A stretch of DNA of 64,000 nt from an uncultured Christensenella sp. (GTDB lineage Bacteria > Bacillota > Clostridia > Christensenellales > UBA1242), in the NCBI GenBank assembly GCA_964434265.1, contig CAYSUK010000001.1, forward strand, positions 175,126-239,125. Direction: 5' to 3'. Position 1 is the first letter of the stretch. Each line of letters opens with the position of its first letter. The position numbers were made by a program, and so were the translations under genes. Below, in pieces: positions 4,725 through 49,640 of this stretch. The notes beneath the pieces were generated by a model. It saw only the letters and a program-made list of their open reading frames with translations, made no database searches and was not told where the DNA came from.

Positions 4725-4729
4725 TTAAT

Positions 4730-5431: not shown

Positions 5432-5518
5432 AAATGTTTTAAATATATCGAGTTTTTGTTTCCAGTAAAATATTTTATATGATATAATCATATAAATCTA
5501 TTAGTAAGGAGCAGAACC

Positions 5519-8341
5519 TTGGCTATCTATTCGAGCAAACATAACAAACTAAAGAAAGAAACAATTCAAAAGGTTGGTATTTCTTTCATTGTAATTTTTA
5601 GTGTACTTCTTATAAACCTACTTTTTGGAATTATCCCATTTTTAAACTCCTTTTTCCTTGGATTCTTGGGTTTGTTTTCTTATGCGCTTTTTATCTCGAT
5701 GATTGTACTTGGAATTCTTCTCACAAATAAAAAACAAATCAAAACAAATAAAAAGGATATAGTGCTATATGTGTTATGGCTATTTGTTTTTATGGCGATA
5801 TTACATCTTGCGACATCAATACAACTAGGCGAGTCATACGGCACTTATTTGTCAGCAGTTTATAAATATAAATACACTGCCGGTGGACTATTTATGGGCA
5901 TCTTTGTTTACCCACTATATTCTTTTACTTATGCACTTGCAAGTTATATTCTGTACGCCGTCACACTCACAATATTGTCCGCAATTATTATTGACAGAAT
6001 CATTACTCGTCGCAATCTTAAAAAAGCGACACTATCAAAAACAACTGTTAGTGAAGAAGATGTCATTGATCCAAACTTCGAAGAAGTTGTAGAAAACACT
6101 CCACAAAAACCAAAGTATGACGACGACATCTTTGTGTCAGACGACTATGAAGTAAAAAACGACTTAGTAGAGAAGGTTGTGAAGGATAAAGACAAGGACA
6201 AGGCACGAAAAATCTTAGGGTTGACAGATGAAGATGAGCCCCAATCTACTGCAGAGCCTATTATGACAAATTCAAACAAGTTTGATTATACGACCGCTCA
6301 AAAACTTGGCATTGATAAAAACGACTATATTAAGACTCCATACAATCCATTTGATAATGTCGAGTCCGACTCCCAAAATCGTCGTTCGGTTATGGTGCAT
6401 GATGACGAATTTGATCTTGAAGAAGAAAAACAAGTCGAGCAAAAACCAGTTAAGCCAAAAATGACCGAAGCCCGTAAAAAATCGCTTGATTTCCTAAACG
6501 CGACAAAAGGCGAGTACACACCGCTTGAAAGCGATGTAAAAGAAACTACAGTGCCCGAGTTTGACATCTACGACCAAAACTTTTCAATGGAAGAATATAA
6601 AGGCAATAAGGAAAAATATTCTACAACCAATGACTTTAATTTTAATCTAAATACCGATTTTAATAGAGACCTTGTTGTCGAACCTGAAGAAGAAATAACC
6701 GAACTTTCCTTTGACGATATTGATGCGAAAGAAGTTGATTATAAATCATACTCAGTGCCACAAAATCGACCATACACAATGGAAACCAAAGTTGAAGCCG
6801 TCAAGCCAAAAACGTTTATGCAACAAGTCGACATAAACGAGATAAGTAAGAAGGCAGAAAAACCAAAAAAACTTCCAAAGCCTATGCGATATATTGCACC
6901 GGATTTGTCGCTTCTTAGGGATTACAACACAAACAATTCTATTGACCACGAAGAACTTGCCATTAAGGGCGAGCGACTTGAAAAGACTCTTGAATCCTTC
7001 CGTATTCCAGCCAAAATTTCAAACATAACTGTCGGACCAGCATTCACTCGTTACGAATTGCAAATTCCACTTGGTATCCCTGTAAGCCGTGTAAATTCGT
7101 TTATTCCAAATATTGCTATGTCACTTGAAACAACAGGCAATATACGTACAGAAATACCTATCCCGGGTAAAAACGCATTTGGTATCGAAGTTCCTAATAA
7201 GAAAACAACAACAGTAGGGCTTAGAGATATTTTGGAATCTGACAATTTCCAAAAAAACAAAAGCCCGCTTACTTATGCACTTGGTAAAGATATTGGTGGT
7301 GAGTGTAGAGTTTCGACTATAAACGATGCCACACATATGCTTATCGCTGGTAGTACTGGTAGTGGTAAATCGGTATGTTTAAATGCCATGCTCATAAGTC
7401 TTATCTATAAGTCAAGTCCAGAAGATGTTCGTATTATTCTTGTTGACCCAAAACAAGTTGAGTTCACACTATATAATGGACTTCCACATTTACTTGTTCC
7501 TAAGGTTATTACCGCACCCGATAAGGCGCTTGATGCATTAAGTTGGTGTATAGACGAGATGGAACGTCGTTTCTCATTGTTCTCACAATTTCGAGTAAGA
7601 GACATGAAAGAATACAACAATCTCGAAGAAGTGAAATCTCGACTTCAAGAGAAGTTGCCATACCTTATCATCGTTGTCGATGAGCTTGCCGACCTTATGA
7701 CAAACAACAAGAAGGAGTTTGAAGAAAAAATAAACAAGCTCGCAGCCAAATGCCGTGCAGCTGGTATTCACTTAGTACTTGCTACTCAAAGACCAAGTGT
7801 CGATGTCATCACTGGTACTATTAAAAACAACTTGCCATCACGTATCGCATTTGCAGTATCGTCATTTAATGATAGCCGAACAATTCTTGGCGAAGGTGGG
7901 GCAGAGAACCTACTAGGAAAAGGTGACATGCTCTTTGCCATCCAAGGCAAGCCTATATCGCGTATACAAGGTGCATTTATCACAAACGAAGAAGTAAACG
8001 ACATTATAAACTTTGTTAAAGAAAACAACGAAGCTGACTTTGACGAAGAAATTGAAGAGAAGATGTTTAATCGAAATAATGGCGGAATAGGGTTTGAAGC
8101 AGAACCAACCGCTGAGATGTTTGACCCACTCATGAAAGAAGCGCTAAGAAATGTAATCCGCTCAAACAACGTATCTGCAAGCAAACTCCAACGTATTTTT
8201 GCCATAGGATTTACCCGTGCGGGACGTATTGTTGACCAAATGGAGGCGGCTGGCTTTATATCTGCCAAAGACAGCAAAAACAACCGCACAATCTTTATTA
8301 CCCAACAAGAATTTGAAGAGAAATTTGGAGAAGACCTATAA
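5519..8341 (+). CDS. ftsK: DNA translocase FtsK/SpoIIIE
   Basis: N-terminal polytopic membrane domain, a long acidic linker, and a motor domain with Walker A GSTGSGKS and Walker B LIIVVDELAD. C-terminal gamma-like domain. TTG start 7 nt after AAGGAG. Confidence 0.9.
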   Translation: MAIYSSKHNKLKKETIQKVGISFIVIFSVLLINLLFGIIPFLNSFFLGFLGLFSYALFISMIVLGILLTNKKQIKTNKKDIVLYVLWLFVFMAILHLATSIQLGESYGTYLSAVYKYKYTAGGLFMGIFVYPLYSFTYALASYILYAVTLTILSAIIIDRIITRRNLKKATLSKTTVSEEDVIDPNFEEVVENTPQKPKYDDDIFVSDDYEVKNDLVEKVVKDKDKDKARKILGLTDEDEPQSTAEPIMTNSNKFDYTTAQKLGIDKNDYIKTPYNPFDNVESDSQNRRSVMVHDDEFDLEEEKQVEQKPVKPKMTEARKKSLDFLNATKGEYTPLESDVKETTVPEFDIYDQNFSMEEYKGNKEKYSTTNDFNFNLNTDFNRDLVVEPEEEITELSFDDIDAKEVDYKSYSVPQNRPYTMETKVEAVKPKTFMQQVDINEISKKAEKPKKLPKPMRYIAPDLSLLRDYNTNNSIDHEELAIKGERLEKTLESFRIPAKISNITVGPAFTRYELQIPLGIPVSRVNSFIPNIAMSLETTGNIRTEIPIPGKNAFGIEVPNKKTTTVGLRDILESDNFQKNKSPLTYALGKDIGGECRVSTINDATHMLIAGSTGSGKSVCLNAMLISLIYKSSPEDVRIILVDPKQVEFTLYNGLPHLLVPKVITAPDKALDALSWCIDEMERRFSLFSQFRVRDMKEYNNLEEVKSRLQEKLPYLIIVVDELADLMTNNKKEFEEKINKLAAKCRAAGIHLVLATQRPSVDVITGTIKNNLPSRIAFAVSSFNDSRTILGEGGAENLLGKGDMLFAIQGKPISRIQGAFITNEEVNDIINFVKENNEADFDEEIEEKMFNRNNGGIGFEAEPTAEMFDPLMKEALRNVIRSNNVSASKLQRIFAIGFTRAGRIVDQMEAAGFISAKDSKNNRTIFITQQEFEEKFGEDL

Positions 8342-22478: not shown

Positions 22479-23537
22479 TTATTCATCTTTTCTAAGTTTT
22501 ATAGCACTAGCAGCATTTCGCCTTATGTCTTCAGATATAGCAGCGTAGTGTTTACGAGTTGTATTTACATCTTTATGTCCTAGTACATCGGCTACAATGT
22601 ATATGTCGCCAGTTTCACGATATAAGTTTGTGCCAAAGGTACTTCTAAGTTTGTGCGGAGTAATATGCTTAAGCGGAGTCACAAGTTGGCTATATTTTTT
22701 GACCAAGTTTTGAACAGCCCTAACAGTTATACGTTTGTTTTGGAGACTCAAAAACAAAGCACGCTCGTCAGGTGAAACATTTTTATTGTTTTCACGTTCG
22801 ACCAAATATTCTTTTAGTGCTGCGGCAACTTCATCATTGAAATACAAAACGACTTGATTTCCACCTTTTCGTGTTACCCTAAATGCATTTTGTTCGAAAT
22901 TTATATCTTCAATATTTAGCCCAACACACTCGGAAATACGTATGCCTGTACCTAAAAACAAACTTAACATTGCAAAATCACGTTTTTTGGTATGTTTGTG
23001 GAAACCTTTTTGCATATCAGTCAGTTTGTCTCCGGCTTCGGATTCGTTAAGGAGTTTTACAACTTCATCTATGTCAAGTCGGATTATTTCCTTATCGTGA
23101 AGTTTTGGAGTATCAATTTTGTCAGCAATATTTGAAGTAATCTTATCTTTTTTGAAAAAGTACTTCAACATCGAGCGTACAGCACTGAGTTTGCGATTTC
23201 TAGCACGTTCGCCATTATGTATCTTTTTACCATCAGCAATATAAAGATTTAAGTATTCTAAATAATATTCTATGTGTGTAGATGTGATTTTATCTAAATC
23301 GGAGTACGTAAATTCAGTAATTTCTTTACCAGCAAATTCTGGCACTTCCCATGACAAAAACTGAAAAAATATTTTCAAGTCCCGTGCATAACCAAGCCGA
23401 GTAAGGGGAGTTGTGTATGCCTCTATTCCTAAAAAATATTCACTACAAAAAGGAGGCAACTCTTTTCTAAGTTGTCTTAATTTTAAAATATTATCATCAT
23501 CACGAGTTTTAAAATAACTTTCTGACATAACATTCAC
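22479..23537 (-). CDS. tyrosine site-specific recombinase (XerC/XerD/phage-integrase family)
   Basis: SAM-like N-domain. Catalytic residues are recognisable: R (GIRISE), H-x-x-R (HKLRSTF), H and Y (LGHKDVNTTRKHY). Confidence 0.85.
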   Translation of the reverse strand: MNVMSESYFKTRDDDNILKLRQLRKELPPFCSEYFLGIEAYTTPLTRLGYARDLKIFFQFLSWEVPEFAGKEITEFTYSDLDKITSTHIEYYLEYLNLYIADGKKIHNGERARNRKLSAVRSMLKYFFKKDKITSNIADKIDTPKLHDKEIIRLDIDEVVKLLNESEAGDKLTDMQKGFHKHTKKRDFAMLSLFLGTGIRISECVGLNIEDINFEQNAFRVTRKGGNQVVLYFNDEVAAALKEYLVERENNKNVSPDERALFLSLQNKRITVRAVQNLVKKYSQLVTPLKHITPHKLRSTFGTNLYRETGDIYIVADVLGHKDVNTTRKHYAAISEDIRRNAASAIKLRKDE

Positions 23538-23649: not shown

Positions 23650-24504
23650 ATGGATATAAAAAACCTAATTAAAGAAGAACATAACAATGAAAAACAATTA
23701 TTGCTTGATGAGTTTAAAAGCATAATTGATGCTATAGTTTATGATTATTTTGAAGATAAAGAAATGTTTGAAGATGACAATATCAAAACATACTATTTTG
23801 ATGAATACAAACTTAACACAAATGTTTGCCAAGATACATTTGCGACATTGTATATCGAAATTAATCAACTATCAAATATAAAAAAGTTTAACGAAAAGGC
23901 GATAGTGCAAGAACGATATTTGACCTTGAAAAAAATAAAAGACGATCTTGAGGCAATATCAATAGAGAGTTTTGACCAAAACACGCTTATATGGCAAGAT
24001 AAATATTCTATTAATTATGCAATAAATATTTATGATGAAAATCAAAACAAGACCACACATTATTTTAAAATAATACCATGTTTTACACATCTAAATGATG
24101 AAAACATAAGCGGTATAATGTATCATTCAAATGACAAAGTTCTTATCGAAATCGAATATCCAAAATTAAGTATACGAAACTTTAAAATCAAGAATAAAAA
24201 CACAAATGATTTATATCGCCAATATGTTCTATTATTCAAAAACGCATACAAATTAGAAAAAAATGAAAAAACATTACCATTTGAAATCTTTGAGATATTG
24301 TTGTATTGTGTACCAGATAATTATTTTACAGACCTAAGCATAACGACAATCTTAAAAATTTTAGACTACATCAAAAATTGTGGAATTAAAGTTTCAAAAA
24401 CCATAGACCAACAACAAGAAGCTTTTAAATCAAAATACAAATCATTGTCATCATTGTATGCATCAATGATAATTAAACGTTTATTAAAAATTTTTTCGAA
24501 ATAA
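23650..24504 (+). CDS. hypothetical protein (weak resemblance to a degenerate nucleotidyltransferase/MAB21-like fold)
   Basis: Clean 284-aa ORF with a GGTGAG RBS and its own terminator. The pattern TLYIEIN ... FKIIPCF ... LYRQYVLLFKNAY ... FEIFEILLY resembles minimal NTase-fold proteins. The canonical GS / DxD catalytic residues are not visible. Confidence 0.4.
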   Translation: MDIKNLIKEEHNNEKQLLLDEFKSIIDAIVYDYFEDKEMFEDDNIKTYYFDEYKLNTNVCQDTFATLYIEINQLSNIKKFNEKAIVQERYLTLKKIKDDLEAISIESFDQNTLIWQDKYSINYAINIYDENQNKTTHYFKIIPCFTHLNDENISGIMYHSNDKVLIEIEYPKLSIRNFKIKNKNTNDLYRQYVLLFKNAYKLEKNEKTLPFEIFEILLYCVPDNYFTDLSITTILKILDYIKNCGIKVSKTIDQQQEAFKSKYKSLSSLYASMIIKRLLKIFSK

Positions 24505-24617: not shown

Positions 24618-24670
24618 AAATGAAACATAATATTATGCAAAACCCGATTGCATAGTAGTTTTTTAAGCCC

Positions 24671-24711
24671 AAACTATTCGTAAAAGTTGTCTTTTGCGAA
24701 TAGTTACTAAC
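24671..24711. repeat. left boundary repeat (putative attL), hairpin-forming
   Basis: AAACTATTCGTAAAAG-ttgt-CTTTTGCGAATAGTTACTAAC. The stem is CTATTCGTAAAAG/CTTTTGCGAATAG with 1 mismatch. It shares AAACT(T)ATTCG.AAAA...CTTTTGCGAATAGTT...ACTA with 29855-29901. Confidence 0.5.
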
Positions 24712-24831
24712 TGCACTTTTAATATATCACAGGACTCCACCCTTGTCAATTAAAAAATGAAAATATTTTTTATTTTCTTGTGAATATCTATTTTTTATGG
24801 TACACTACTCTAAAAAATAAGGAAGTATCAA

Positions 24832-25380
24832 ATGAAAAGAAAAAACAAAAAAGCATTAAGTTTAACTCTAAAAATAATATTTTGTTTATTATTCTGGTGG
24901 CTAATAATTATAGTAGCAATTATAAAATTAAATAACCAGAACAACAAAAAGACCACTACTCCAACCAACAAGCAATATGAAAGCAAGAGCCTACTAACCA
25001 ATTATGAAAAGTACTTTTATGATATCATAAGTAATGAGTTTTCAAATATGTATTATATCATGCCACAAGTAAACTTAGCGTCAATAGTAAACAAAATCAA
25101 GGACTTTCCTACTCAATATCAAAATGAATTATACCGAAATATTGACATAGGTATATTTGACAAGTCAAATATGACACCACTTTTACTAATTGAGATAAAT
25201 GACAAAACACATAACAACAAAAATCGGATAGCAAGAGACCATAAAGTCAAGGAAATATGTGACACAGCAAACATTCCACTAATAACATTTTATTCCAATT
25301 ATGCAAATAAAAAAGATTACATAATACAAAGAATAAAAGAAACACTAAGCAATAATTTGCCTAATGTTTCTAACAACTGA
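24832..25380 (+). CDS. membrane-anchored DUF2726-family (restriction-endonuclease-like fold) protein
   Basis: N-terminal TM helix. The segment LLTNYEKYFYDII...IMPQVNLASIV...NIDIGIFDK...PLLLIEINDKTHNN..RIARDHKVKEICDTANIPLITF matches the DUF2726 pattern. It converges on the Rep gene and overlaps its 3' end by 36 nt. Confidence 0.65.
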   Translation: MKRKNKKALSLTLKIIFCLLFWWLIIIVAIIKLNNQNNKKTTTPTNKQYESKSLLTNYEKYFYDIISNEFSNMYYIMPQVNLASIVNKIKDFPTQYQNELYRNIDIGIFDKSNMTPLLLIEINDKTHNNKNRIARDHKVKEICDTANIPLITFYSNYANKKDYIIQRIKETLSNNLPNVSNN

Positions 25381-26214
25381 CCAATAATCATATTCAGTCA
25401 CACTAACTATACTATTCATATCGAATAGTATTTTTTTAAATTTGTCTTGTTTTCCCCTACCCAACATTTTTAAATACATGTTAGAATTATCATTTTGCAA
25501 CAGTAACGATAATAAAACCTTATCAGTATCATTCAGATTAACACAATCAAATAAATTTACATTTTTTAAAAAATTTACAATAGGAAGTTGTTTCCTAAAA
25601 TTATCATAATCAAAACAATCAAGAGTAATCTCCAAACGAGTCAAATCATAATCAAGATTACTCTCTTTGGTTTTATTGTACAACTTTACAAAACCATTTC
25701 TATTCCTATGCCCAAGATATTCAGTAATACTATCAATATCAATACTCGCCTGCTCCACCTTGTAAATCTTATCATAATCTCTTAAATCTTTCATTAAACA
25801 ACAAAGTGACCTTTTACATTTTATATCAATAGCAAAATCATATCTCACAATCTCAATCGAACGACCAAAGTTTTTAATAAAATCAATAATAGGAGTTACA
25901 TAACAATTAGACAAACACTTATTAGGATTAAATTCGATAAAACAACTTTTACAATCACTTTTTTTACAACCATTAAAAAACAAACCAACAACAAATGAAT
26001 TGTCAAAGTACTTAAAATTTAGCATATATCTATACGAGAATAAAGCATAACTTTGATACATTTTAAAGTCGTATTTTTTATCTTTAAGACTCAAATCATT
26101 AACATAATCGTTAAATTGTTTACAAACATAATCATCAAAGCGAAAGACTATACGAACCATATCACAAGACAAAATCAAGTTATCACAAGTAATAACTGGA
26201 TTATAGTAATTCAT
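25345..26214 (-). CDS. rolling-circle replication initiator, Rep_trans family (RstA/pII functional analogue)
   Basis: Motifs IVRYDFAIDI, EYLGHRNRNGFVKLYNK and LTRLEITL fit the Rep_trans signature. Start trimmed to the ATG at 26214 (MNYYNP), 8 nt after AGGTGGAG. Confidence 0.7.
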   Translation of the reverse strand: MNYYNPVITCDNLILSCDMVRIVFRFDDYVCKQFNDYVNDLSLKDKKYDFKMYQSYALFSYRYMLNFKYFDNSFVVGLFFNGCKKSDCKSCFIEFNPNKCLSNCYVTPIIDFIKNFGRSIEIVRYDFAIDIKCKRSLCCLMKDLRDYDKIYKVEQASIDIDSITEYLGHRNRNGFVKLYNKTKESNLDYDLTRLEITLDCFDYDNFRKQLPIVNFLKNVNLFDCVNLNDTDKVLLSLLLQNDNSNMYLKMLGRGKQDKFKKILFDMNSIVSVTEYDYWSVVRNIRQIIA

Positions 26215-26250
26215 ATATTCTACTCCACCTTTATGTAATTTTTTACATAG

Positions 26251-26366
26251 TAGCACACCTATTAGACATAGGTGTGCTAGTCAAAGTGGCGGGATAACCC
26301 GCCACCCACCACACACCCGCCATATAATTAACCATTGACAAGCGGATGCTTGTGTACAACACAAGC
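26251..26366. promoter_or_regulatory. cluster of three GC-rich hairpins upstream of rep (candidate replication origin / packaging signal)
   Basis: Three stems: TAGCACACCTAT-tagac-ATAGGTGTGCTA (26251-26279), GTGGCGGG-ataa-CCCGCCAC (26286-26305) and GCTTGTGT-aca-ACACAAGC (26348-26366). This is locally the most GC-rich non-coding DNA in the element. Confidence 0.4.
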
Positions 26367-26497
26367 AATAATATCAGATCAGCCACAATTAAGAAAAGAA
26401 ACCACAACTATGTGTTTTCTTTTCAAGTATTAGCATATTACAACGATATAAATGTCAAAAAATTTGCAAGTTTGCAAAAAATTTGTTACACAAATTT

Positions 26498-26653
26498 CTA
26501 GTTTTTGACATCTATATCGTTATTATCAATAGAACTTACCAAAGTGTCAGAAGACACCTTTTTTGCTTTTTTCTTAGCAATAATAGTTTTAACAAGAACA
26601 TAGATTTCATAGCCCAAATAGCCACAAAGTCCAATCAATATAAAATATTTCAT
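26498..26653 (-). CDS. small (51 aa) single-pass membrane protein, not in the ORF track
   Basis: Hand translation gives MKYFILIGLCGYLGYEIYVLVKTIIAKKKAKKVSSDTLVSSIDNNDIDVKN. The ATG lies 5 nt after the Zot-like stop, with an AAGGTAAGG RBS. The size and TM helix fit the small minor coat or assembly proteins of inoviruses. Confidence 0.45.
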   Translation of the reverse strand: MKYFILIGLCGYLGYEIYVLVKTIIAKKKAKKVSSDTLVSSIDNNDIDVKN

Positions 26654-26658
26654 TTTAA

Positions 26659-27675
26659 TTACCTTACCTTTTCTATATTTTTAAAATCGCTAGTCAGCGG
26701 TTTATATATTTTCCTATGAGAGACTCTAAGCAATGTATATCTCTTCAATTCTGAAAAAACATTCTGAATATCCGTATATGGTACACTATTATATCTTTCA
26801 CTATAACAATACGTATCATATCTTTTTCGCAATGGAAACATACCAAAAGTCACTTTCATATTGTCTTCACTATTTTGTTGTTCAATCGTTTTAATATCTT
26901 CACTTAAAGATAACTCACGAATATTAACTTTATAAAACAATCCAAAATAACCTTTAAAATTCATTAAATTAAACACTTTATTTAATCTAACACGAATAGG
27001 CTTACAAATACTGTCACTACACTGTTCAGTACATATTAGGTAGCCACCACGGCTATAATGCCGAAATAAACGGACAAACTCGTCAAGAGCATATATAACA
27101 TTAGGATTATTATACTCGTATTGATTAACATACCCCCCTATCTCATCAAGAAAAACTATCGATTTATAATTGATATGCTTTTGCAATAACAAATAATCTT
27201 CGGTCAATTCTAACGAACTTTCAATAAATCTACTTACATCACGTCGTTTAATTAAATTATTCAATAACATAGACTCATAATCGACTCTCAAAATATATCG
27301 ACTAATTTTATCCTTGTTTTTATTATTATAATCAAGCCAATAAGAATATTTCAATTTAACTAAATTATACATATTAAACTTGACTCTTTTTTGTCGAATA
27401 AAAATAGGAATAGAACTATATAACATAGGTATTTCAGTAATAATTTGTTTTTTCTCTTTTCTAAATAAATTCAAAAAACGTGATTTAATATTACCAACCC
27501 TAATTTTAAACCTATTTTTTCTAAGTAATTTTATTGATTGTTGCACACCTTTAAAGGTTTTACCACTACCCAATCCACCAGTATATGCGATAATTGTGTC
27601 GTATTTTTCAAAATATGCTTTCAAAACAAGCCATATACATAATATACCTAATAAAATAATAATTATAGACCACAT
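26659..27675 (-). CDS. Zot / pI-like morphogenesis P-loop ATPase
   Basis: N-terminal TM helix then Walker A GGLGSGKT, and Walker B IVFLDEIG. Start trimmed to the ATG at 27675 (MWSIII), preceded by AGGTGAG. Confidence 0.7.
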   Translation of the reverse strand: MWSIIIILLGILCIWLVLKAYFEKYDTIIAYTGGLGSGKTFKGVQQSIKLLRKNRFKIRVGNIKSRFLNLFRKEKKQIITEIPMLYSSIPIFIRQKRVKFNMYNLVKLKYSYWLDYNNKNKDKISRYILRVDYESMLLNNLIKRRDVSRFIESSLELTEDYLLLQKHINYKSIVFLDEIGGYVNQYEYNNPNVIYALDEFVRLFRHYSRGGYLICTEQCSDSICKPIRVRLNKVFNLMNFKGYFGLFYKVNIRELSLSEDIKTIEQQNSEDNMKVTFGMFPLRKRYDTYCYSERYNSVPYTDIQNVFSELKRYTLLRVSHRKIYKPLTSDFKNIEKVR

Positions 27676-27683
27676 ACACTCAC

Positions 27684-28037
27684 CTACCACACCAGCAAAT
27701 TGTATGTACATGAGCATACAATTTTTATAATATATAACAACATTTCAATGCAATACACTAAAAACATCACAGCAAATACAACACATTCATATATAAGTTT
27801 TAGAGTAATCCAAATAACTTTTAGTACTTCATACCATTTACTATCTTCGTCATAATCTCCGTATTCTAGAAAAGTTTTTACAATTTTTTCAGTAGACGGC
27901 ATTTCAGGACGATTTTCAGCGGACTCAGCAACATTAGATAAATAATTTTCAAAACTAAAAGAACTTGTAGCATTATTCACACTAAATAGTGCAATAATAA
28001 CAACTAAACAAATAAAAACAACACCTAATTTACGCAC
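27684..28037 (-). CDS. phage membrane protein (signal peptide plus C-terminal TM helices)
   Basis: 117 aa. The start overlaps the stop of the upstream ORF by 1 nt (translational coupling). Hydrophobic N- and C-termini. Confidence 0.5.
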   Translation of the reverse strand: MRKLGVVFICLVVIIALFSVNNATSSFSFENYLSNVAESAENRPEMPSTEKIVKTFLEYGDYDEDSKWYEVLKVIWITLKLIYECVVFAVMFLVYCIEMLLYIIKIVCSCTYNLLVW

Positions 28038-28264
28038 TATCTTTTACCACCTTTTATATCTTTATATCGCATTATCTTTTGCAAAATTTTAAATGGGAGA
28101 ATTAAAAACAACCAAACAACGATATAACTTACAACACAAACATATAGTACCTTAAAAATATCTATATATTTAAATGACCACGAGCCAATAGTGCTATCAA
28201 GTAAATTCACATCTATAAAAACACCCAATATATCATTTATTAAGATATCAAACAAATTACACAT
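28037..28264 (-). CDS. small phage membrane protein (pVI-like size/topology)
   Basis: 75 aa with a central hydrophobic helix pair and a basic C-terminus. Tightly packed in the operon. Confidence 0.45.
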   Translation of the reverse strand: MCNLFDILINDILGVFIDVNLLDSTIGSWSFKYIDIFKVLYVCVVSYIVVWLFLILPFKILQKIMRYKDIKGGKR

Positions 28265-28274
28265 AATACACCTC

Positions 28275-29279
28275 CTACATAAGTTTTCTTATAACAAAGA
28301 ATACTAGCAACAATGACACAATAGCAATTAAAAAGTAACTCATATTGATACCGAATATTTCAAAATTAAATGCATTACTTAACACATTAAAAGGGGCATC
28401 AATTATAGAAAATATCAAATTTTTAAAAGTAGATTGACCGTTTACAGTATCAGACTCCCCCATATTATAACCATCTGAATAGCCTTGATTAAATCGATCA
28501 CTACCATAATCTATATATTGAGTTTTGTTATACATACCATAATCAGACGGATTTTGTTTGACGTTATCAATACCATCATTATATCCACTTTCATATCCAC
28601 TATCGTATGCATTATCGTATGCATTTTTAGATACCAAATCATAATCAGATGGATTGTCAGTTACTAAATGTGTACCATCACTTACACCAGCATTATACCC
28701 TTCTTCATAACCATAATTACTATCAAAACCATTATTATAGAAATAGCATGCAGAACTAATACAATTAGGCGCACAATATATTCTAGAACCATCAATTTTA
28801 TGAATAAAAACCAACCCCATAACATTTAGAGAATCAAAAAATGATGATAAAGAACTATCAATATTAGGATCATAAGTATTAACAGTAGGATATGTATATT
28901 TTAAAGTTACAAAATTATAAGAGTTTGAATGACTTAACAAAGTAAAATTATCAGGTATGATATCATTATAATAATCATACACATAATAATCATAATCAGT
29001 ATCATAATTTTTAAATGTAAAAGCGTAAAATTTAAAAGTATATGTACATGTTGAAGAAGAAACATCATGAGTCCAAGAAGACAGAGACAAATCTTCACTT
29101 AAATTCATATCATAACTCTTACCATATGGAGAGAAACAATATGTATTACTTATATTTAATGCACCTACAACTGCAACAATACTAAGCATAAGACACATAA
29201 TATAACTAAAAAGGTGGTATTTAGACACCACCTTTTTCTTATATATAGTGTCACAATTATTATTAAACATAATAGACAC
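28275..29279 (-). CDS. pIII-like minor coat/adsorption protein candidate
   Basis: 334 aa with an N-terminal signal anchor and a C-terminal TM anchor (YFLIAIVSLLLVFFVIRKLM). The middle region has Y/D/N/G-rich repeats (GYNxG...NPSDY). It directly follows the major coat candidate. Confidence 0.5.
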   Translation of the reverse strand: MSIMFNNNCDTIYKKKVVSKYHLFSYIMCLMLSIVAVVGALNISNTYCFSPYGKSYDMNLSEDLSLSSWTHDVSSSTCTYTFKFYAFTFKNYDTDYDYYVYDYYNDIIPDNFTLLSHSNSYNFVTLKYTYPTVNTYDPNIDSSLSSFFDSLNVMGLVFIHKIDGSRIYCAPNCISSACYFYNNGFDSNYGYEEGYNAGVSDGTHLVTDNPSDYDLVSKNAYDNAYDSGYESGYNDGIDNVKQNPSDYGMYNKTQYIDYGSDRFNQGYSDGYNMGESDTVNGQSTFKNLIFSIIDAPFNVLSNAFNFEIFGINMSYFLIAIVSLLLVFFVIRKLM

Positions 29280-29287
29280 CCCCTACA

Positions 29288-29506
29288 CTATCTATTGCGA
29301 ACCATACGAATTGCACCATATACCAAGCCAATAGCCATACTAATACCTAGAAATACTAGACCAAATTCAGCAACACTAGAAAGTACTTTTGTACTGGCTT
29401 CCGGGTCTTCATAAAGAATATTTAGAAAAGCCGTTTTTATACCACTAGCAAGATTTGTAATAGTAGTTGTAAAACCAGTGAATATTTTAGAAACTATATC
29501 TGCCAT
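29288..29506 (-). CDS. pVIII-like major coat protein candidate
   Basis: 72 aa. The C-terminal 40 aa show the classical inovirus coat layout: acidic EDPEAS, a hydrophobic helix AEFGLVFLGISMAIGLVYGAI, and a basic tail RMVRNR. Confidence 0.55.
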   Translation of the reverse strand: MADIVSKIFTGFTTTITNLASGIKTAFLNILYEDPEASTKVLSSVAEFGLVFLGISMAIGLVYGAIRMVRNR

Positions 29507-29697
29507 TAGTCAATAACACCCCCTTTTTCATCGTATTTGTGGAATTTTAACAAATACTTAAATAGTTTTTTGTTATCTTCCTTAACTTGTAGAGATATTT
29601 TTTCGCCGTCGATTATTGTGGACAACTCATAATACTCTACACATTCGCCGTCTTTTTCAAACGACTTTTTAACAATACACAAATCAAATTTTTTCAT
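29506..29697 (-). CDS. small phage protein (possible ssDNA-binding or regulatory protein)
   Basis: 63 aa, the first ORF of the structural operon, with a GGAGG RBS. Its stop overlaps the coat gene start by 1 nt. No recognisable motif. Confidence 0.4.
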   Translation of the reverse strand: MKKFDLCIVKKSFEKDGECVEYYELSTIIDGEKISLQVKEDNKKLFKYLLKFHKYDEKGGVID

Positions 29698-29791
29698 TTT
29701 TTAATACCTCCATATAAATTTTATTGTGTACAGATAATAACTACTTCGCAAAAGACACTATTTTGCAAACAATTTTTAATGATACACTATT

Positions 29792-29826
29792 AAAAAAAAG
29801 TACTAACCTTTTTTAACAGTTAGTAC
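29792..29826 (-). terminator. minus-strand terminator insulating the phage operon from upstream host transcription
   Basis: On the minus strand: GTACTAAC-tgttaaaaaag-GTTAGTAC followed by T8. Confidence 0.5.
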
Positions 29827-29854
29827 CAATCATATAATTATAAAGTAGATAACA

Positions 29855-29901
29855 AAACTTATTCGCAAAACTATGGTCACTTTTGCGAATAGTTTGTTAC
29901 T
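29855..29901. repeat. right boundary repeat (putative attR), hairpin-forming
   Basis: AAACTTATTCGCAAAA-ctatggtcac-TTTTGCGAATAGTTTGTTACTA with a perfect 11-bp stem TATTCGCAAAA/TTTTGCGAATA. Imperfect direct copy of 24671-24711. Confidence 0.5.
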
Positions 29902-37565: not shown

Positions 37566-40328
37566 CTATTTTTCAGATAACTTTTTTATTTTGCTAGTAT
37601 AGTCACTCCAACCCGACACAGTCGTATTTACATATGTGTCATAATACTCATCAGGAACGTAGATAATAAGGTCATCGCTGTAACCAAAAAGGTTGTAACC
37701 CAATGTAGGCGGATTTGCCGAAGTAAATGTGATACTTGTAAGAGATGTATTACCACCGAATGCGCCCACGATACTTGTTACACTACTTGGGATAGTTACA
37801 CTTTTAATAGTTTTATTCTCATAAAATGCCCTTAGAATTCCATAACATTCAGGTATAGTAACATTTTCAGAAGTGCCTATATAATCTACCAGATATTTAT
37901 TTCCATCATTTCCAATTACAAATTTAAAATCACCTTCTGTCGTAATTTGACTAGTCCCACTTGTAGCCACTCTTACAGCATAATATGCTACACTACCATT
38001 ACTAGGACTACCAACCGTAATAGTTAGTGTAGATAAATTTATTACTTCTGCAAGGCGATAACATGAAGAGAATGCATTATAATCAATACTTGTTACACTT
38101 GCTGGAATAGTAATACTTGTGAGAGCTGAACAATTATAGAATGTATTATAATTAATACTTGTCACATTCTCAGGGATTGTGATACTTGTAAGTGATGTAC
38201 AATAATAGAATGCATAACTACTAATACTTGTCACATTCTCAGGGATTGTAATGCTTGTAAGTGATGTACAGCCTCGGAATGCATAATTATTAATACTTGT
38301 AAGTTGACTATTTTCAGCGAATGTCACACCTGTAAGCGCTGAACAACCATCGAATGCTTGCGAACCAATACCGGTTACACCACTTGGGATTGTGATATTT
38401 GTGAGTGATGTACAATTCATAAATGTACAAGGGGCGATATAACTAAGTTGACTATTCTCTGCAAATGTCACACTTGTAAGGGCTGTACAATCACTGAATG
38501 CCTGTAGATGGATACCTGTCACACTCGACGGGATTGTGATACTTGTGAGTGATGTACAGTTGTTGAATGCATTTTCACCAATACCTGTAACTTGCATTCC
38601 ATTGTGGCTTTCAGGTATAACTACTCTTGATATATTTTTACCTAGGACACCCAAAACTGTGACGCGGTCAGATAGAGTAAAATCATCTTGAAGAGTATAT
38701 ATAAAGCATAGCCTAGAAGAGTCGCTAGAAGTAATATTTGAAACTACGCAAGTAGACGATGTAGATAAACTTTGACCAGCAGTAACGTCGCTTGGGTCAT
38801 ATATCTCTACTACACAAAAATCAGTCAAATCAATGATAGGGATATTTAAAGTAACACTACCATTTTCAAAATTTCCAGCATCTAAATTAGAAATTGAACC
38901 ATATAAGCTATATAATATATCTAAAGCACTTACATATTTGAAATAATTTGGCAATACTAATACGCTTTTTGCTTTTGGGTTGTTTAAAGTAATGCTAACT
39001 ACTTCTAAATTTGATACTCGATAGTTTGTGTACGAATATGTAAGAGATTCAGTATCATATGAGTCAGTCATGATAGTTTGAGTGTTTGAAATATCACTAC
39101 CCAAACTATGCTTATCTGCTATCCAGTTTTGAGTAGTTTTTGTGGTGGTCATAGTCGAGTTGTTGTTTGAATACTTGACGGTTATACCAGAGATACCCAT
39201 AGCTTTAAGTTGACCCCCTAAAACATTGCTAGCTAATGCTAAAGTAAGTGACATCTCGCCATTGTCTAGATATGAGTTTGGAATAGTGACTGACACTACT
39301 CCATCGTCAGATGTCGTATAACAATCTTCTATCACTACAAGATTGGAATCTGCAAGTGCATCTTCATATGAAGCATACGAGCCTTTTACGACTATAAACT
39401 CACCCATCTCAATAACAGGCACTAGTGTTTGATCATCAGTACTGTACATCGACATCAAACTACTATCCACCATTACATATGGGAAATAGTCAAAAGTGAT
39501 ATCAAAGCCACTAGGTACATTTGATATATTGAGTGTGGAAATAATATAACCATATTCATATTCATCAGAACTAATTTTCATTGTCTCTACTACTTCAGTG
39601 CCAGTAGACTCGATAGTGGTAGTCTCGATAGTAGGCTCACCCAAAGTCAAGACTGACACACTTGGGCCTGATATACCTGAAAAGTCTTCAAAGTATGGTA
39701 TAAAGTCTACTATAGTAGTAGGTACTTCTCCGCTCTCGCTATGGATTAGGCTTTGGAGCACGATACCTGTCATAGTGATTGTACACTTTTGACCACTGGC
39801 CGAATTACCGAGTGAGTTTGGGAATGTGATAGGGACTGTGAATTTGATAGTAATACCGCTTGTGGTAGGTGTAAATACTTTTAGATTTGCTGTGTTTGAT
39901 TTTTCTGCTAGGTACAAGTCACCATTGTATACTACCATGACTGTATCTGTAGACTTTGTGCCATTGATAGTGACGTCATATGTACTACCTGCGGTGAGTG
40001 TAAGTTTTGCGCCCGTAGAGCCTGCTTTGAGTGATGGGATTACTTTTAGTACTCCGCTTGTAGGGTCGCCATCTGTTCCGTTTTTCACTACAAGTGTAGT
40101 CTCTACATCGACTGTTTGGCTAGGCACGACTGTGAGTCCGTCGCTAGTCGCGACTGACACACCATTCTCGCCATCAAACTCGATTGATGCACCGAGTTTG
40201 ATTTCTGTACTGCCACTCTTACTATCGCCAAAGAATGTGAGTGTTATGCCGACGGTCAGACCGACACAAGCGACTAGTATGAGTGCCATGCAAACTAGCA
40301 TTTTGTGAAATTTAAATTGACTCTTCAT
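37566..40328 (-). CDS. surface protein: SipW-type signal peptide + TasA/camelysin-like N-domain + central region + BspA-type leucine-rich repeats
   Basis: The N-terminus MKSQFKFHKMLVCMALILVACVGLTVGITLTFFGDSKSGSTEIKLGASIEF matches the TasA/CalY class of signal peptides (..GGTFAYFSD..). The C-terminal half holds about 9-10 LRRs of ~23 aa (FxxCTSLTSITIPxSVTSI). Confidence 0.8.
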   Translation of the reverse strand: MKSQFKFHKMLVCMALILVACVGLTVGITLTFFGDSKSGSTEIKLGASIEFDGENGVSVATSDGLTVVPSQTVDVETTLVVKNGTDGDPTSGVLKVIPSLKAGSTGAKLTLTAGSTYDVTINGTKSTDTVMVVYNGDLYLAEKSNTANLKVFTPTTSGITIKFTVPITFPNSLGNSASGQKCTITMTGIVLQSLIHSESGEVPTTIVDFIPYFEDFSGISGPSVSVLTLGEPTIETTTIESTGTEVVETMKISSDEYEYGYIISTLNISNVPSGFDITFDYFPYVMVDSSLMSMYSTDDQTLVPVIEMGEFIVVKGSYASYEDALADSNLVVIEDCYTTSDDGVVSVTIPNSYLDNGEMSLTLALASNVLGGQLKAMGISGITVKYSNNNSTMTTTKTTQNWIADKHSLGSDISNTQTIMTDSYDTESLTYSYTNYRVSNLEVVSITLNNPKAKSVLVLPNYFKYVSALDILYSLYGSISNLDAGNFENGSVTLNIPIIDLTDFCVVEIYDPSDVTAGQSLSTSSTCVVSNITSSDSSRLCFIYTLQDDFTLSDRVTVLGVLGKNISRVVIPESHNGMQVTGIGENAFNNCTSLTSITIPSSVTGIHLQAFSDCTALTSVTFAENSQLSYIAPCTFMNCTSLTNITIPSGVTGIGSQAFDGCSALTGVTFAENSQLTSINNYAFRGCTSLTSITIPENVTSISSYAFYYCTSLTSITIPENVTSINYNTFYNCSALTSITIPASVTSIDYNAFSSCYRLAEVINLSTLTITVGSPSNGSVAYYAVRVATSGTSQITTEGDFKFVIGNDGNKYLVDYIGTSENVTIPECYGILRAFYENKTIKSVTIPSSVTSIVGAFGGNTSLTSITFTSANPPTLGYNLFGYSDDLIIYVPDEYYDTYVNTTVSGWSDYTSKIKKLSEK
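38157..38277. repeat. near-identical 69-bp-period tandem repeat inside the LRR coding region
   Basis: ACTTGTCACATTCTCAGGGATTGT(G/A)AT(A/G)CTTGTAAGTGATGTACA occurs at 38157 and again at 38226. The copies encode TIPENVTSI..YCTSLTS. More diverged copies span ~37990-38600. Confidence 0.8.
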
Positions 40329-44694: not shown

Positions 44695-45369
44695 TTAGTA
44701 TGGAACAAAGTTTAGAAGTGTAGACAAACTATCGCTATACAAATACACTTCAGGTACGCTTCCTATTAGTATGCTCTCACTTATCAAAACTTGTTGGGAC
44801 GTACTAAACTTTCTAGTATACAAAGGCATTACAATACCTACATTTGCATTTATAGTGATATAAATTCTGTGTATTGTCTGGTTAATTCCCGCCTGCTCAA
44901 AGTCTGACACAAATTTACAATGAACCGACCCTATTGGTGTTATTTTTAAATTTACATTTGGGCCACTGCCCGACAAAATTGGCACTCCAGAAAACGCACC
45001 CAAAGGTATCTCGACACCCAAATCACCATAATCATCAATTAGTTTTTCTGTTGTTTGTGCAAGTTGTTTTGAAATATTGTTTGCCTCTACAGCATTTGCT
45101 TGTATCATTGTTATGTTCCCAAGGTCGTCAGTAACTATTGTGATAAGATTATCATATCTCACTCCACGGCTAACAACGATGTTTATAGCTTCATTTATTG
45201 CACTGGTCGATAAAGCTTTGCTTTTAAGCTCAATAGTGTTTATCAAAACCGGATTTACAAACAGTGCAAAAATAAGAACAACTACAAATACACACAAAAA
45301 GAGAATAAGTAAAAACTTACTTCTCTTTCCAAATCTCCGCTTATTTTTATTTTTGGTACAAGCCTTCAT
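44695..45369 (-). CDS. yunB: sporulation protein YunB
   Basis: N-terminal TM and the YunB-like core (ITPIGSV...AGINQTIHRIY). Confidence 0.65.
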   Translation of the reverse strand: MKACTKNKNKRRFGKRSKFLLILFLCVFVVVLIFALFVNPVLINTIELKSKALSTSAINEAINIVVSRGVRYDNLITIVTDDLGNITMIQANAVEANNISKQLAQTTEKLIDDYGDLGVEIPLGAFSGVPILSGSGPNVNLKITPIGSVHCKFVSDFEQAGINQTIHRIYITINANVGIVMPLYTRKFSTSQQVLISESILIGSVPEVYLYSDSLSTLLNFVPY

Positions 45370-45405
45370 ACAATATGATATGACTTTTGTTGTTTTTTAT
45401 GAAAA

Positions 45406-45771
45406 CTAATACTTTTTTGTTCGACTACTAAATATCAATGCGAAAATGTAAGCAAATATAATTGCAGCAGATATTCCGCCCGCTGTTGCTGTCAGACCGC
45501 CTGTAAATGCACCGAGCAATCCCTTATCTTTGACTGCATCAATTGCGCCCTTTGCGAGACTTCGACCAAAGCCTGTAATCGGCACAGTCGCCCCTGCACT
45601 CGCAAAAGCAACAATAGGGTCATACAAATCAAAGGCTTCCAACACGGCACCAATACACACAAACAATACAAGTATCCTTGCACTTGTCATATTCGTTCTT
45701 ATAATCAAAAGTTGACCAAGCATGCAAATAAATCCACCAACTAAAAAAACTTTAAGATACAACAACCACAT
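45406..45771 (-). CDS. spoVAE: stage V sporulation protein AE
   Basis: 121-aa membrane protein with the GATVPITGFG motif. Last gene of the spoVAC-D-E set. Confidence 0.85.
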   Translation of the reverse strand: MWLLYLKVFLVGGFICMLGQLLIIRTNMTSARILVLFVCIGAVLEAFDLYDPIVAFASAGATVPITGFGRSLAKGAIDAVKDKGLLGAFTGGLTATAGGISAAIIFAYIFALIFSSRTKKY

Positions 45772-46781
45772 TACAAACCCTCCTCGCTTTCAATCACTAT
45801 CGCATGACATATTCCAGGTATTGAATCCCCTTGCTGACTACTCAGTGGACTCAGTAATGCACCTGTAGGTGCAAACAACACTTTCTTCAACTCGCCACTT
45901 TTAAGCTTTGACATAATGTATGAATTAAATACAGCCGCACTACAACCAGCACCACTTCCGCCTTGAAATGTTTTTTGATTATCATTAAACATCATCTGAC
46001 CGCAATCACAATAATTGTTTTTAAGTTTGATGCCTTTATTTTCAAGAAGGTCTATCAGTGTGTCGCTCCCAAGTTTGCCCAGGTCGCCAGTTACAATAAG
46101 GTCATAATCATCAGGTGTAGTTTTAGTGTTTTTGAAATGATTTAGTAAAGTATCCATTGCTGCAGGTGCCATTGCGCCACCCATATTATTAACATCTTTT
46201 ACATCATAGTCAATCACTCTTCCAAAAGTGATCGAGCTTATATATGGCCCACGACCTTTGTTAGACAAGACCGAACATCCACCGCCAGTAATTGTCCATT
46301 GACTTGTGGGCGGACGTTGATTTCCAAGTTCGAGCGGATAACGATATTGGCGTTCTACAGAACTGAAATGACTTACCGTCGAACATGAAACCTTATTTAA
46401 ATAACCACCATCGACCAATATTGCACCCACCCCCAACGTAAGTGCCATTGTAGAACATGCTCCATAGAGACCAACATATTGCAACTCAAGTTCACGTGCT
46501 GCAAAACTAGAAGAAATTATTTGATTAAGAAGGTCGCCACTTAGCATTAAATCAATGTCCTTTTTATTTAATCCCGCATCTTTTATAGCACCTTCTATCA
46601 CATTGATGGCAATTTGTCTTTCTGCTTTTTCAAAAGACTTTTCACCCAACATATCATCTTCCAAAATTCGATGAAAATATTTTTTAAAATTTCCATATCC
46701 TTCTTTACTACCAACAATCGAATAATTCCCGATTATCCTTGGCTTGTTTTTAAGGAAAATAGTTATATTGTTTTTACCCAT
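45771..46781 (-). CDS. spoVAD: stage V sporulation protein AD
   Basis: 336 aa, thiolase-like fold, typical SpoVAD sequence. Flanked by spoVAC and spoVAE. Confidence 0.9.
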   Translation of the reverse strand: MGKNNITIFLKNKPRIIGNYSIVGSKEGYGNFKKYFHRILEDDMLGEKSFEKAERQIAINVIEGAIKDAGLNKKDIDLMLSGDLLNQIISSSFAARELELQYVGLYGACSTMALTLGVGAILVDGGYLNKVSCSTVSHFSSVERQYRYPLELGNQRPPTSQWTITGGGCSVLSNKGRGPYISSITFGRVIDYDVKDVNNMGGAMAPAAMDTLLNHFKNTKTTPDDYDLIVTGDLGKLGSDTLIDLLENKGIKLKNNYCDCGQMMFNDNQKTFQGGSGAGCSAAVFNSYIMSKLKSGELKKVLFAPTGALLSPLSSQQGDSIPGICHAIVIESEEGL

Positions 46782-46789
46782 CTTCTCTC

Positions 46790-47236
46790 CTAAATAAATA
46801 GATATATAATCCCAACAATTATTGATATAGCGACTCCATTAACAATTACTGGACCAGCTACAGTAAACATTTTCACACAAAGACCAAATATAATTCCTTC
46901 CTTTTTAAACTCAATAGCAGGGCTGGCAATTGAATTGGAAAAACCAGTAATCGGCACAATAGAACCTGCACCTGCAAAGACACCGATTCTGTCATACACA
47001 CCAAGACCAGTCAAAAAACTTGCCAAAAATATTAGTATTATTAGCATCCACGAAGTAGCTTCTTCCACCGTCATCGTTTTAAAAATAGCCATTAGACCAT
47101 TCATAATTCCTTGACCAATACAACAAATAAGTCCACCAATCAAAAACGCATAAATTAACGTTGGGAACTGTTTTGTTTGTGGGATCTTTTTCTCCAAATA
47201 TTCGTTATATTTTTTGTTACGTTCTTTACTATCCAT
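46790..47236 (-). CDS. spoVAC: stage V sporulation protein AC
   Basis: Membrane protein with GAGSIVPITGF. Start trimmed to the ATG at 47236 (MDSKERNKKY) after AGGTGG. Confidence 0.9.
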   Translation of the reverse strand: MDSKERNKKYNEYLEKKIPQTKQFPTLIYAFLIGGLICCIGQGIMNGLMAIFKTMTVEEATSWMLIILIFLASFLTGLGVYDRIGVFAGAGSIVPITGFSNSIASPAIEFKKEGIIFGLCVKMFTVAGPVIVNGVAISIIVGIIYLFI

Positions 47237-47342
47237 AAAACCACCTAAAAAATAATAGACACTCAAACAAAAAAATAAACACATTTTATATAAATATTTT
47301 CAAAAAAATGCAACAAAATATAACTAAAATATGGAGGCATAT

Positions 47343-49553: not shown

Positions 49554-49596
49554 TTAGTTATTATTTCATAATTATATTTCATCGATAATATAAAAT

Positions 49597-49640
49597 AAAA
49601 GTACTCGATTTTGATCTCCAAAATCGAGTACTTTTATTTT
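49597..49640. terminator. bidirectional terminator (lipoprotein gene on +, sigF on -)
   Basis: Perfect 16-bp stem AAAAGTACTCGATTTT-gatctcc-AAAATCGAGTACTTTT. Confidence 0.8.

Follow-up and report, generated by a model that had tools for sequence, protein, structure and literature searches.

Described Inoviruses and a Probable Case of Xer-Dependent Integration

Enterocloster and Hungatella are gut Clostridia and thus belong to a spore-forming group. Thousands of cryptic inoviruses, prophages of Clostridia included, have been catalogued (Roux 2019, PMC6813254), and secretion of the Enterocloster inovirus prophages has been demonstrated both in culture (in vitro) and in vivo, that of the Hungatella prophages having been shown as well (Burckhardt 2023, PMC10061712). 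Together with B5 of Propionibacterium and CAK1 of Clostridium, these are pI/Zot-type phages of Gram-positive hosts, as is the element described here, which lies in a 64,000-nucleotide (nt) stretch of DNA (the window) from an uncultured Christensenella sp. (contig CAYSUK010000001.1). The element spans approximately positions 24691–29894 of the window and is most likely an intact inovirus-type prophage with a unit of 5189 bp, resident in an endospore-forming Firmicute and integrated by the host Xer system in the manner of integrative mobile elements exploiting Xer (IMEX). As inovirus prophages of Clostridia are known, it adds to an already published type; a preliminary description of this DNA, according to which few Gram-positive filamentous phages have been characterized, overstated their rarity (PMC6813254; PMC10061712).

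The Enterocloster and Hungatella prophages have direct-repeat flanks and no secretin, as here. Compared by description, they are 6.5–8.5 kb in size (one is 16 kb) with 10–16 further open reading frames (ORFs), whereas the present element is 5.2 kb with nine genes. The mechanism of their integration is left undefined in that paper (PMC10061712).

CTX-phi, VGJ-phi, and TLC-phi of Vibrio have no integrase, and their attP mimics dif with one well-matched arm, the rest being divergent; they integrate at the terminus-associated dif, and intact dif is regenerated at one junction (PMC5357621). The lack of an integrase, the dif-mimicking attP, and the intact site at one junction have counterparts at the present locus, where the palindrome is a candidate for a terminus-associated dif. 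The Vibrio phages use XerC and XerD in Proteobacteria, whereas the candidate here, named by sequence inference only, is a single XerS-like recombinase that is linked to the site in a Firmicute.

In the xerS–difSL system of streptococci, a single Xer-type recombinase is encoded beside its palindromic target (PMC1914069; PMC5357621). The system as found in streptococci and lactococci is like the present one in having a single recombinase of ~350 amino acids (aa), whose gene lies beside the palindrome and is transcribed away from it (PMC1914069; PMC2965235), and the arm sequences are similar in type (TTCGCAAAA/TTTTGCGAA here, TTTCCGAAAA/TTTTCTTGAAA in difSL). It differs in that difSL is 31 bp long with an 11-bp central region, whereas the host site here is 28 bp and the phage attP has a long (10–11 nt) spacer. 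No description of an integration route via Xer in Clostridia, or of a filamentous phage using XerS, was found in the full-text literature, most subscription journals lying outside that body of text.

Organization of the Prophage

The element consists of eight tightly packed minus-strand genes and one plus-strand gene, as given by the ORF list. Loci used for comparison are numbered from L001, and the ratio of nonsynonymous to synonymous substitution rates (dN/dS) refers throughout to the relative at L002.

24832–25380, plus strand: accessory (moron-like) DUF2726 protein, 182 aa (Pfam DUF2726, E 6e-16)
25345–26214, minus strand: predicted rolling-circle replication initiator of the Rep_trans superfamily (Rep), 289 aa (profile, fold, and homologues; ATG at 26214)
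26498–26653, minus strand: single-pass membrane protein, 51 aa (ORF list and membrane prediction)
26659–27675, minus strand: predicted Zot/pI-like morphogenesis ATPase, 338 aa (Walker motifs, fold, and homologues)
27684–28037, minus strand: membrane protein, 117 aa (dN/dS 0.12)
28037–28264, minus strand: membrane protein, 75 aa (dN/dS 0.16)
28275–29279, minus strand: pIII-like candidate adsorption protein, 331 aa from the likely start ATG at 29270 (334 aa from 29279)
29288–29506, minus strand: candidate major coat protein, 72 aa (size, position, and hydropathy)
29506–29697, minus strand: soluble protein, 63 aa, first gene of the structural operon (ORF list; no family match)

The compact block of ~5.2 kb reported in the preliminary description is real, with the genes listed there and 1-base overlaps at 29506 and 28037. 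The remaining gaps were given there as 5–10 nt; the packing is indeed tight, and the range is 5–17 nt, varying with the choice of start codon. The one-strand gene set likewise holds for the eight minus-strand genes, the plus-strand DUF2726 gene having been omitted, and the interval of 24671–29901 needs correction at its left edge, where the first ~20–35 bases (24671–24705) are the host-type dif-like palindrome and not phage DNA. A Firmicute-type Shine–Dalgarno-like motif (GGAGG/AAGGTGG) precedes every element gene. The G + C content is 0.25–0.29, compared with 0.33–0.39 in the flanks, and the GC skew within the element is −0.25 to −0.45. A small genome (about 4–12 kb is usual for inoviruses), a rolling-circle initiator, and the location of eight of nine genes on one strand are thus combined in this element. 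Its gene content includes neither a secretin, as had been pointed out before, nor an integrase: Pfam and PHROGs scans of the nine ORFs found no integrase, transposase, or resolvase domain, DUF2726 being the sole match in either collection. The whole element had no blastn match among 50,697 phage records.

Replication Initiator

The longest ORF of Rep starts at 26256 (303 aa), and the ATG at 26214 gives the 289-aa protein. By itself, the window protein matches neither Rep_trans (PF02486) nor any other family in Pfam or PHROGs. Weak Rep_trans matches are seen in 30 of 48 aligned homologues (best E 5.5e-6), and the profile of the Rep family matches the staphylococcal RepD-type structures 4cwe/4cwc at E 7e-11. 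The AlphaFold model has a mean predicted local distance difference test score (pLDDT) of 90.5, and its sole significant Foldseek matches are 4cwe, 4cwc, and 4cij (E 8e-12 to 2e-6), with a template-modeling score of about 0.55–0.59 against 4cwe and 4cwc. Tyr179 is invariant in the 48 Rep sequences, and Y179-x-K181 aligns with the RIYNK motif of 4cwe (RepD), the tyrosine of which we take to be the catalytic Tyr188 of RepD. Fold and Y-x-K motif are hence shared with RepC and RepD of the pT181 family (PF02486; 4cwe, 4cwc, 4cij), which differ in sequence (identity ~18%) and in their plasmid context, the context here being that of a phage. Rep has hundreds of metagenomic homologues, none annotated, and shares 35% identity, over 74% of its length, with the Dulem virus 72 replication protein (see below). 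Profile and model together support membership in the Rep_trans superfamily, as distinct from membership in the Pfam family by score; at the superfamily level, the earlier assignment as a Rep_trans initiator is upheld (E 7e-11 by profile; E 8e-12 by fold).

Zot/pI-Like ATPase

The ATPase has an N-terminal membrane helix, a Walker A motif (GGLGSGKT), and a Walker B motif (VFLDE); an alternative start at 27717 would give 352 aa, and 27675 was judged the better one. As with Rep, the window protein alone matches neither Zot (PF05707) nor any other Pfam or PHROGs family. Weak Zot matches occur in 21 of 45 homologues (best E 1.3e-6), and a precomputed PF05707 match is recorded for two database homologues. 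The closest fold to that of the model (pLDDT 84) is the N-domain of Neisseria Zot (2r2a, E 7e-6). Among the viral models of BFVD, the nearest are several proteins named "Zonular occludens toxin [Inoviridae sp.]". The link to Zot comes from the fold comparison, because a search of PDB sequences with the ATPase profile returned noise only. By tblastn, the ATPase shares 40.8% identity, over 87% of its length, with a protein of bajarodino virus 71 that is annotated as Zot. There are hundreds of metagenomic homologues, none annotated; a scan of IMG/VR with the ATPase alignment gave no confirmed relative, and an exact look-up of the window sequence found no copy on record.

These results support a Zot/pI-like ATPase at the superfamily level, as read from sequence and model, and not a Pfam family member by score. 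The earlier proposal of such an ATPase is borne out by the 2r2a fold match, the Inoviridae Zot proteins in BFVD, and the 40.8% identity. The profile searches that had been suggested as a check gave a divided result: the window proteins match neither Zot nor Rep_trans, and homologues, profile, and fold support both.

The nearest relatives in GenBank are circular Inoviridae genomes of 5.3–5.5 kb from animal viromes (faecal and saliva samples). Bajarodino virus 71 (PQ006122.1, 5276 nt, circular) and Dulem virus 72 (L014; PP511697.1, 5519 nt, circular) belong to the same size class, with small ORFs packed around the ATPase gene; the initiator of bajarodino virus 71 is different, shorter, and encoded on the opposite strand. 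Both are free circular genomes without a known host and without DNA similarity to the present element, an integrated one whose host context can be identified. A dif-like palindrome, TTCGTTAAA-N8-TTTTAACGAA, is located at 2997–3023 of Dulem virus 72, which suggests that the same integration strategy may be used more widely.

Structural, Membrane, and Accessory Proteins

The 72-aa candidate coat protein has a hydrophobic helix at residues 41–69 followed by a basic tail (RMVRNR), and is without a signal peptide. It has no homology to a named coat family in Pfam or PHROGs, and no named homologue was found for the 72-, 334-, 75-, 117-, and 51-aa proteins. For the pIII-like protein, ATG 29270 suits a ribosome-binding site better than 29279; the protein carries GY-x-x-GYN-x-G repeats as well as a signal or anchor at its N-terminus and a membrane anchor at its C-terminus. 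The 63-aa protein could, by its position, be a single-stranded DNA (ssDNA)-binding protein or a regulator. The pVIII-like, pIII-like, and membrane-protein labels of the preliminary description therefore fit in size, order, and hydropathy, and find no homology to named families.

Seven element genes have a dN/dS of 0.04–0.16, all but the pIII-like gene being under strong purifying selection. The 63-aa and coat-like proteins are 94–96% identical to those of L002 (dN/dS 0.05 for the former; 96% and 0.04 for the latter), and the DUF2726 protein, which has an N-terminal transmembrane-like segment (residues 7–36), has a dN/dS of 0.07; its gene is missing from the circular relative L010 and from L135. 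The pIII-like protein is hypervariable: it shares 45% aa identity with its L002 counterpart (dN/dS 0.54), its middle portion (28442–29137) cannot be aligned with that of L002 at the DNA level, and its size in relatives ranges from 331 to 619 aa. A receptor-binding protein would be expected to vary in this way.

An integrated rolling-circle plasmid, or a non-viral integrative element with a P-loop ATPase that forms no filamentous virion, would account for part of these data: Rep_trans is the classical initiator of pT181-type plasmids, the coat and pIII labels are without homology support, and circular 5-kb contigs fit a plasmid too. However, the ATPase is nearest to inovirus Zot/pI in both fold and sequence, and the gene order (soluble, coat-like, large variable anchored, small membrane protein, ATPase) matches that of inovirus modules. 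Genomes of relatives, obtained from faecal and saliva samples, have also been filed under Inoviridae, and possibly related inovirus prophages of Clostridia have been shown to be secreted (PMC10061712). We regard a non-viral element as very unlikely, and the inovirus-type prophage as the reading to be carried forward.

Junctions and Attachment Sites

The two ends of the prophage are as follows.

24670–24705: left junction, dif-type palindrome CAAACTATTCGTAAAAG-TTGT-CTTTTGCGAATAGTT, equal to the reconstituted host site
29855–29894: right junction, attP-type site AAACTTATTCGCAAAAC-TATGGTCA-CTTTTGCGAATAGTT, with a 10-nt centre if the arms are taken as 11 nt

The 15-nt sequence CTTTTGCGAATAGTT occurs in direct orientation at 24691–24705 and 29880–29894, where it forms the right arm of each junction and marks the crossover repeat; the distance from repeat to repeat is 5189 bp. 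The 28-bp core of the left junction, TATTCGTAAAA/GTTGTC/TTTTGCGAATA, is a near-perfect palindrome of the form 11-6-11, and the central region of the right junction is four bases longer. A repeated 15-mer is unremarkable in this AT-rich window, which contains 298 distinct ones, and the direct repeat was accordingly rejected as stand-alone statistical evidence. It is meaningful because it is located exactly at the change of similarity with respect to relatives, because it is one arm of a palindrome, and because the same pair of sites is found elsewhere. The palindrome containing the 15-nt arm occurs only three times in the window.

In four further host backgrounds (L002, L135/136, L137/138, and L139), the element lies between this same pair of dif-type and attP-type sites. 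The circular relative L010 carries the long-spacer (attP-type) site only. The integrated relative L009 has this same long-spacer site at its ygjP-side junction, and L009 and L010 diverge just past the conserved arm. In L080, a more distant relative in which the recombinase is 68% identical, a short-spacer site identical to that of the window stands alone, without a prophage, between the CD-NTase-like gene and ygjP, and is an analogue of an empty site. Because of the L010/L009 pair, the paired sites of the integrated copies, and L080, the short-spacer site is taken as the host attB and the long-spacer site as attP; it follows that the crossover would have occurred at or within the shared arm. 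In L135 (7853–12678), the prophage relative is inverted with respect to the same flanking host genes, and it is the opposite arm of the host palindrome that is shared there; the L135 host also has a seryl-tRNA synthetase gene between xer and the CD-NTase-like gene. Three features that mark an IMEX are present: no recombinase of its own, an attP that mimics the host dif-type site, and a location between a dif-type and a dif-like site. Xer-mediated (IMEX-type) integration is therefore likely, as judged from the sites.

A scan of genome contigs for empty sites with the ygjP product returned only an unrelated Rickettsiaceae match. Assembly breaks at the left palindrome in L003, L004, and L005 were considered as a sign of mixed integrated and excised populations, and this was rejected, as a near-perfect 34-nt palindrome breaks k-mer assembly. 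In L001, a 5661-nt contig with a 93%-identical Rep, the DNA past the dif-type site (3782–5661) is not the usual host flank and contains other small genes, one with a weak REP_ORF2-G2P match; another rolling-circle element may have inserted here in tandem.

Relatives and Mobility

Many homologues of the element are found on metagenomic contigs of 5.2–5.9 kb. L010 (5319 nt) has the same gene set, DUF2726 excepted, in circular permutation, and joining its ends via an 11-nt overlap restores the full 72-aa coat ORF; the L010 molecule is therefore circular or a tandem. The DNA identity to L002 is 85% in the element and 71–75% in the flanks, and the synonymous divergence (dS) from L002 is 0.5–0.9 for the element genes and saturated for the flanking host genes. 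The lower dS of the element means that it entered both lineages after their split, or that it moves between them.

These comparisons bear on whether the element could be a fixed remnant, domesticated or decaying, that is vertically inherited and immobile. Its presence at one and the same locus, ygjP/xer, in each of the five host backgrounds seen would agree with this, as would the results that no excised form of the exact element was found and that the exact look-up of the ATPase returned no match. Site-specific integration alone, however, accounts for a recurrent locus, and the ORFs are intact and under strong purifying selection, with dS in the element below that of the host flanks; the flipped copy in L135, the empty site in L080, and the circular relative also speak for movement. 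A remnant is thus quite unlikely. Conservation of synteny across relatives without boundary repeats, which the preliminary description had named as evidence against a prophage, is not what is observed: the repeats are present, L080 provides an empty-site analogue, and the flanks have diverged further than the element itself. The reading as an intact, mobile prophage is retained.

Host dif-Like Palindrome and XerS-Like Recombinase

The recombinase candidate is encoded outside the element.

22479–23537, minus strand: host tyrosine recombinase, XerS-like, 352 aa (Pfam Phage_integrase, E 4e-35)

The gene lies 1.1 kb from the left junction, with the CD-NTase-like gene between them. The site pattern ATTCGYAAAAG-N4-CTTTTRCGAAT (in its 28-bp form, TATTCGYAAAA-N6-TTTTRCGAATA) was searched for in a metagenome collection, and at least 120 exact matches (L015–L134) were obtained, one per contig, on gut, rumen, and termite-gut contigs. 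None of the 120 loci listed contains a homologue of the phage ATPase or Rep. A recombinase homologue is located within 1.5 kb of the palindrome in 39 of these at least 120 loci (median distance 261 nt). In these 39, the homologues are mostly 45–68% identical to the window recombinase, and transcription is directed away from the site in 37, often with lexA beyond. The sites can be asymmetric at one position (T or C), and in all 28 asymmetric sites listed the T arm is the one nearer the recombinase gene, the window agreeing with this rule. The palindrome is best read as the dif-like target of the XerS-like enzyme, and palindrome and linked gene may together be an undescribed dimer-resolution module of Clostridia.

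The GC skew is near zero or slightly positive at 1–22 kb of the window and negative at 24–64 kb, and gene orientation shifts from mostly plus to mostly minus at about 22–24 kb, where the skew changes sign. Skew and orientation thus switch together at about 22–24 kb as expected near a terminus, with weak evidence on the left side.

Rep_trans initiators of the pT181 family act at hairpin origins, and the same prophage could in principle have been inserted by its own Rep, which would nick and join at an origin-like hairpin; alternatively, Rep would make progeny ssDNA straight from the chromosome, starting at one terminal palindrome and stopping at the other, with no role for Xer. The two ends share the 15-nt arm in direct orientation inside hairpin-forming palindromes, as this route would have it, and a classical tyrosine-recombinase reaction would have difficulty with spacers of 10 and 6 nt. 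The dif-type palindrome, however, is a feature of hosts, present on at least 120 contigs without a Rep or ATPase homologue in the loci listed, and is tightly and directionally linked to a host recombinase gene; in addition, the hairpin-rich region directly 5′ of rep is a better candidate for the origin. Integration by Rep is accordingly unlikely, and integration through the host Xer system is preferred.

The CD-NTase-like protein encoded between the recombinase gene and the dif-like site (23650–24504, plus strand; 284 aa) matches a PADLOC oligonucleotide cyclase at E 6e-11, and no effector gene is evident beside it. Its gene has a G + C content of 0.25, as low as that of the phage, and the same placement in L002, L080, L135, L137, and L139; the gene could have been left behind by an earlier insertion there.

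Proposed Mechanism and Its Weak Points

The phage would have a circular replicative form and rolling-circle replication, and its ssDNA would be coated and extruded via an assembly complex of the ATPase and the small membrane proteins. For integration, the dif-like attP with its 10-nt spacer would recombine with the 28-bp host site through the XerS-like recombinase acting in trans. After crossover at or in the 15-nt arm, the left junction would be an intact site of the host type and the right junction a site of the attP type. The junction of the circular form would read AAACTTATTCGCAAAAC TATGGTCA CTTTTGCGAATAGTT ACTAACTGC (29855–29894 joined to 24706 onward), and the empty site would consist of 24670–24705 followed directly by 29895 onward. 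The unequal spacers might, speculatively, be accommodated by a single-strand exchange that is resolved by replication, as for CTX-phi.

Several points weigh against this reading as a whole. For integration, the attP spacer of 10 nt compared with 6 nt in the host site would not be tolerated by a classical two-strand tyrosine-recombinase exchange, and the host site is of the form 11-6-11 and not a 31-bp difSL. The best NCBIfam match of the recombinase is XerS at 190 bits, below the cut-off of 267 bits, and the symmetric variant of the palindrome has a nearby xer in only 8 of 56 cases among the matches listed. The palindrome is a candidate dif as judged from contigs, and the left-side skew values near zero make for weak terminus evidence. 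As regards the phage, the sole membrane helix of the ATPase is N-terminal and not central, unlike that of Ff pI, and the labels of the coat, pIII-like, and 63-aa proteins rest on size, position, and hydropathy only, none of the window proteins reaching a Pfam or PHROGs threshold for a coat family, Zot, or Rep_trans. Finally, no virion, ssDNA, or circular form was observed for this element itself, the circular molecules being those of relatives.

Non-Coding Regions of the Element

Four features were recognized outside the genes.

24721–24749, minus strand: promoter-like site TTGACA-17-TATATT with a TG-extended −10 (11 of 12 matches)
26215–26535, minus strand: hairpin-rich intergenic region, the coding strand of which has at least five strong hairpins
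29745–29769: third dif-like palindrome TTCGCAAAAGACACTATTTTGCAAA, with a 7-nt spacer, just 5′ of the 63-aa gene
29792–29826, minus strand: terminator-like hairpin GTACTAAC...GTTAGTAC with a trailing T8, lying between the third palindrome and attP (read by eye)

The non-coding stretch 5′ of rep is 240–280 nt long. GC-rich stems are visible in 26215–26535, the predicted DNA fold of which has −73.6 kcal/mol, compared with −25.9 ± 3.4 for shuffled sequences (z = −14). By analogy with the Ff intergenic region, which it resembles, this region is a candidate for the packaging signal and the origins.

The promoter-like site at 24721–24749 is kept in L001, L002, and L010; it would direct transcription outward from the prophage and, after circularization, across attP. 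It is one of two back-to-back promoter-like sites in 24721–24830, the plus-strand one being placed to drive the DUF2726 gene. The left-end promoter may drive the structural operon in the circular form, the terminator-like hairpin at 29792–29826 intervening. That hairpin was not called by the scanner because of its 11-nt loop, and in the circular form would halt read-through.

The third palindrome is kept at the same place in L002, L011, and L139/L140, with a more degenerate copy in L009 and L010. Possible roles are those of an operator, a second Xer-binding site, or a partner site resembling attP2.

Host Background

SpoVAC, SpoVAD, SpoIIAB (anti-sigma-F factor), and YunB are encoded in the window, all above the NCBIfam cut-offs, whose values are narrowly missed by a GerW-family protein and a sigma factor of the SigF type. 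The sporulation genes are located at 44695–50804 and 58798–59220, and Spo0A is encoded on the contig of a relative. These genes support a Gram-positive endospore-former as host, and the four above the cut-offs agree with what had been suggested from the sequence at first. The window also encodes PNPase, FtsK, RimO, MiaB, LexA, and RNase Y, as well as MutS/MutL, the last assigned by position and by annotation of the syntenic L002 locus.

The gene of a 920-aa leucine-rich repeat surface protein (37566–40328, minus strand) contains internal DNA repeats (e.g., 38153–38235); the protein matches PARCEL repeats and the HupY/LrrG adhesin weakly. Six tRNA genes (Pro, Met, Asp, Phe, Thr, Tyr) are clustered at 51304–51841, and a tRNA-Trp gene is located at 37445; none adjoins the prophage.

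Implications for Clostridia and Their Inoviruses

The prophage is a small, clean, and apparently intact example in a spore-former, and could be induced for study. The more useful result is the integration site, a palindrome directionally linked to an XerS-like gene. The element could be the first recognized IMEX of a Gram-positive endospore-forming host, hijacking an uncharacterized single-recombinase Xer/dif module that is widespread in gut Clostridia (XerS-like, often beside lexA); we put this forward tentatively, the case for it being almost as strong as the case against.

If the module is the dimer-resolution system of these Clostridia, inoviruses exploit Xer beyond Proteobacteria, and the phage insertion would pinpoint the chromosome-dimer-resolution site of the clade. 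Linkage of xerS and dif has been proposed to protect against insertions (Le Bourgeois et al., PMC1914069), an idea that would become testable here. The site would then be a predictable landing pad for small mobile elements, usable in the prediction of prophages and islands in Clostridia.

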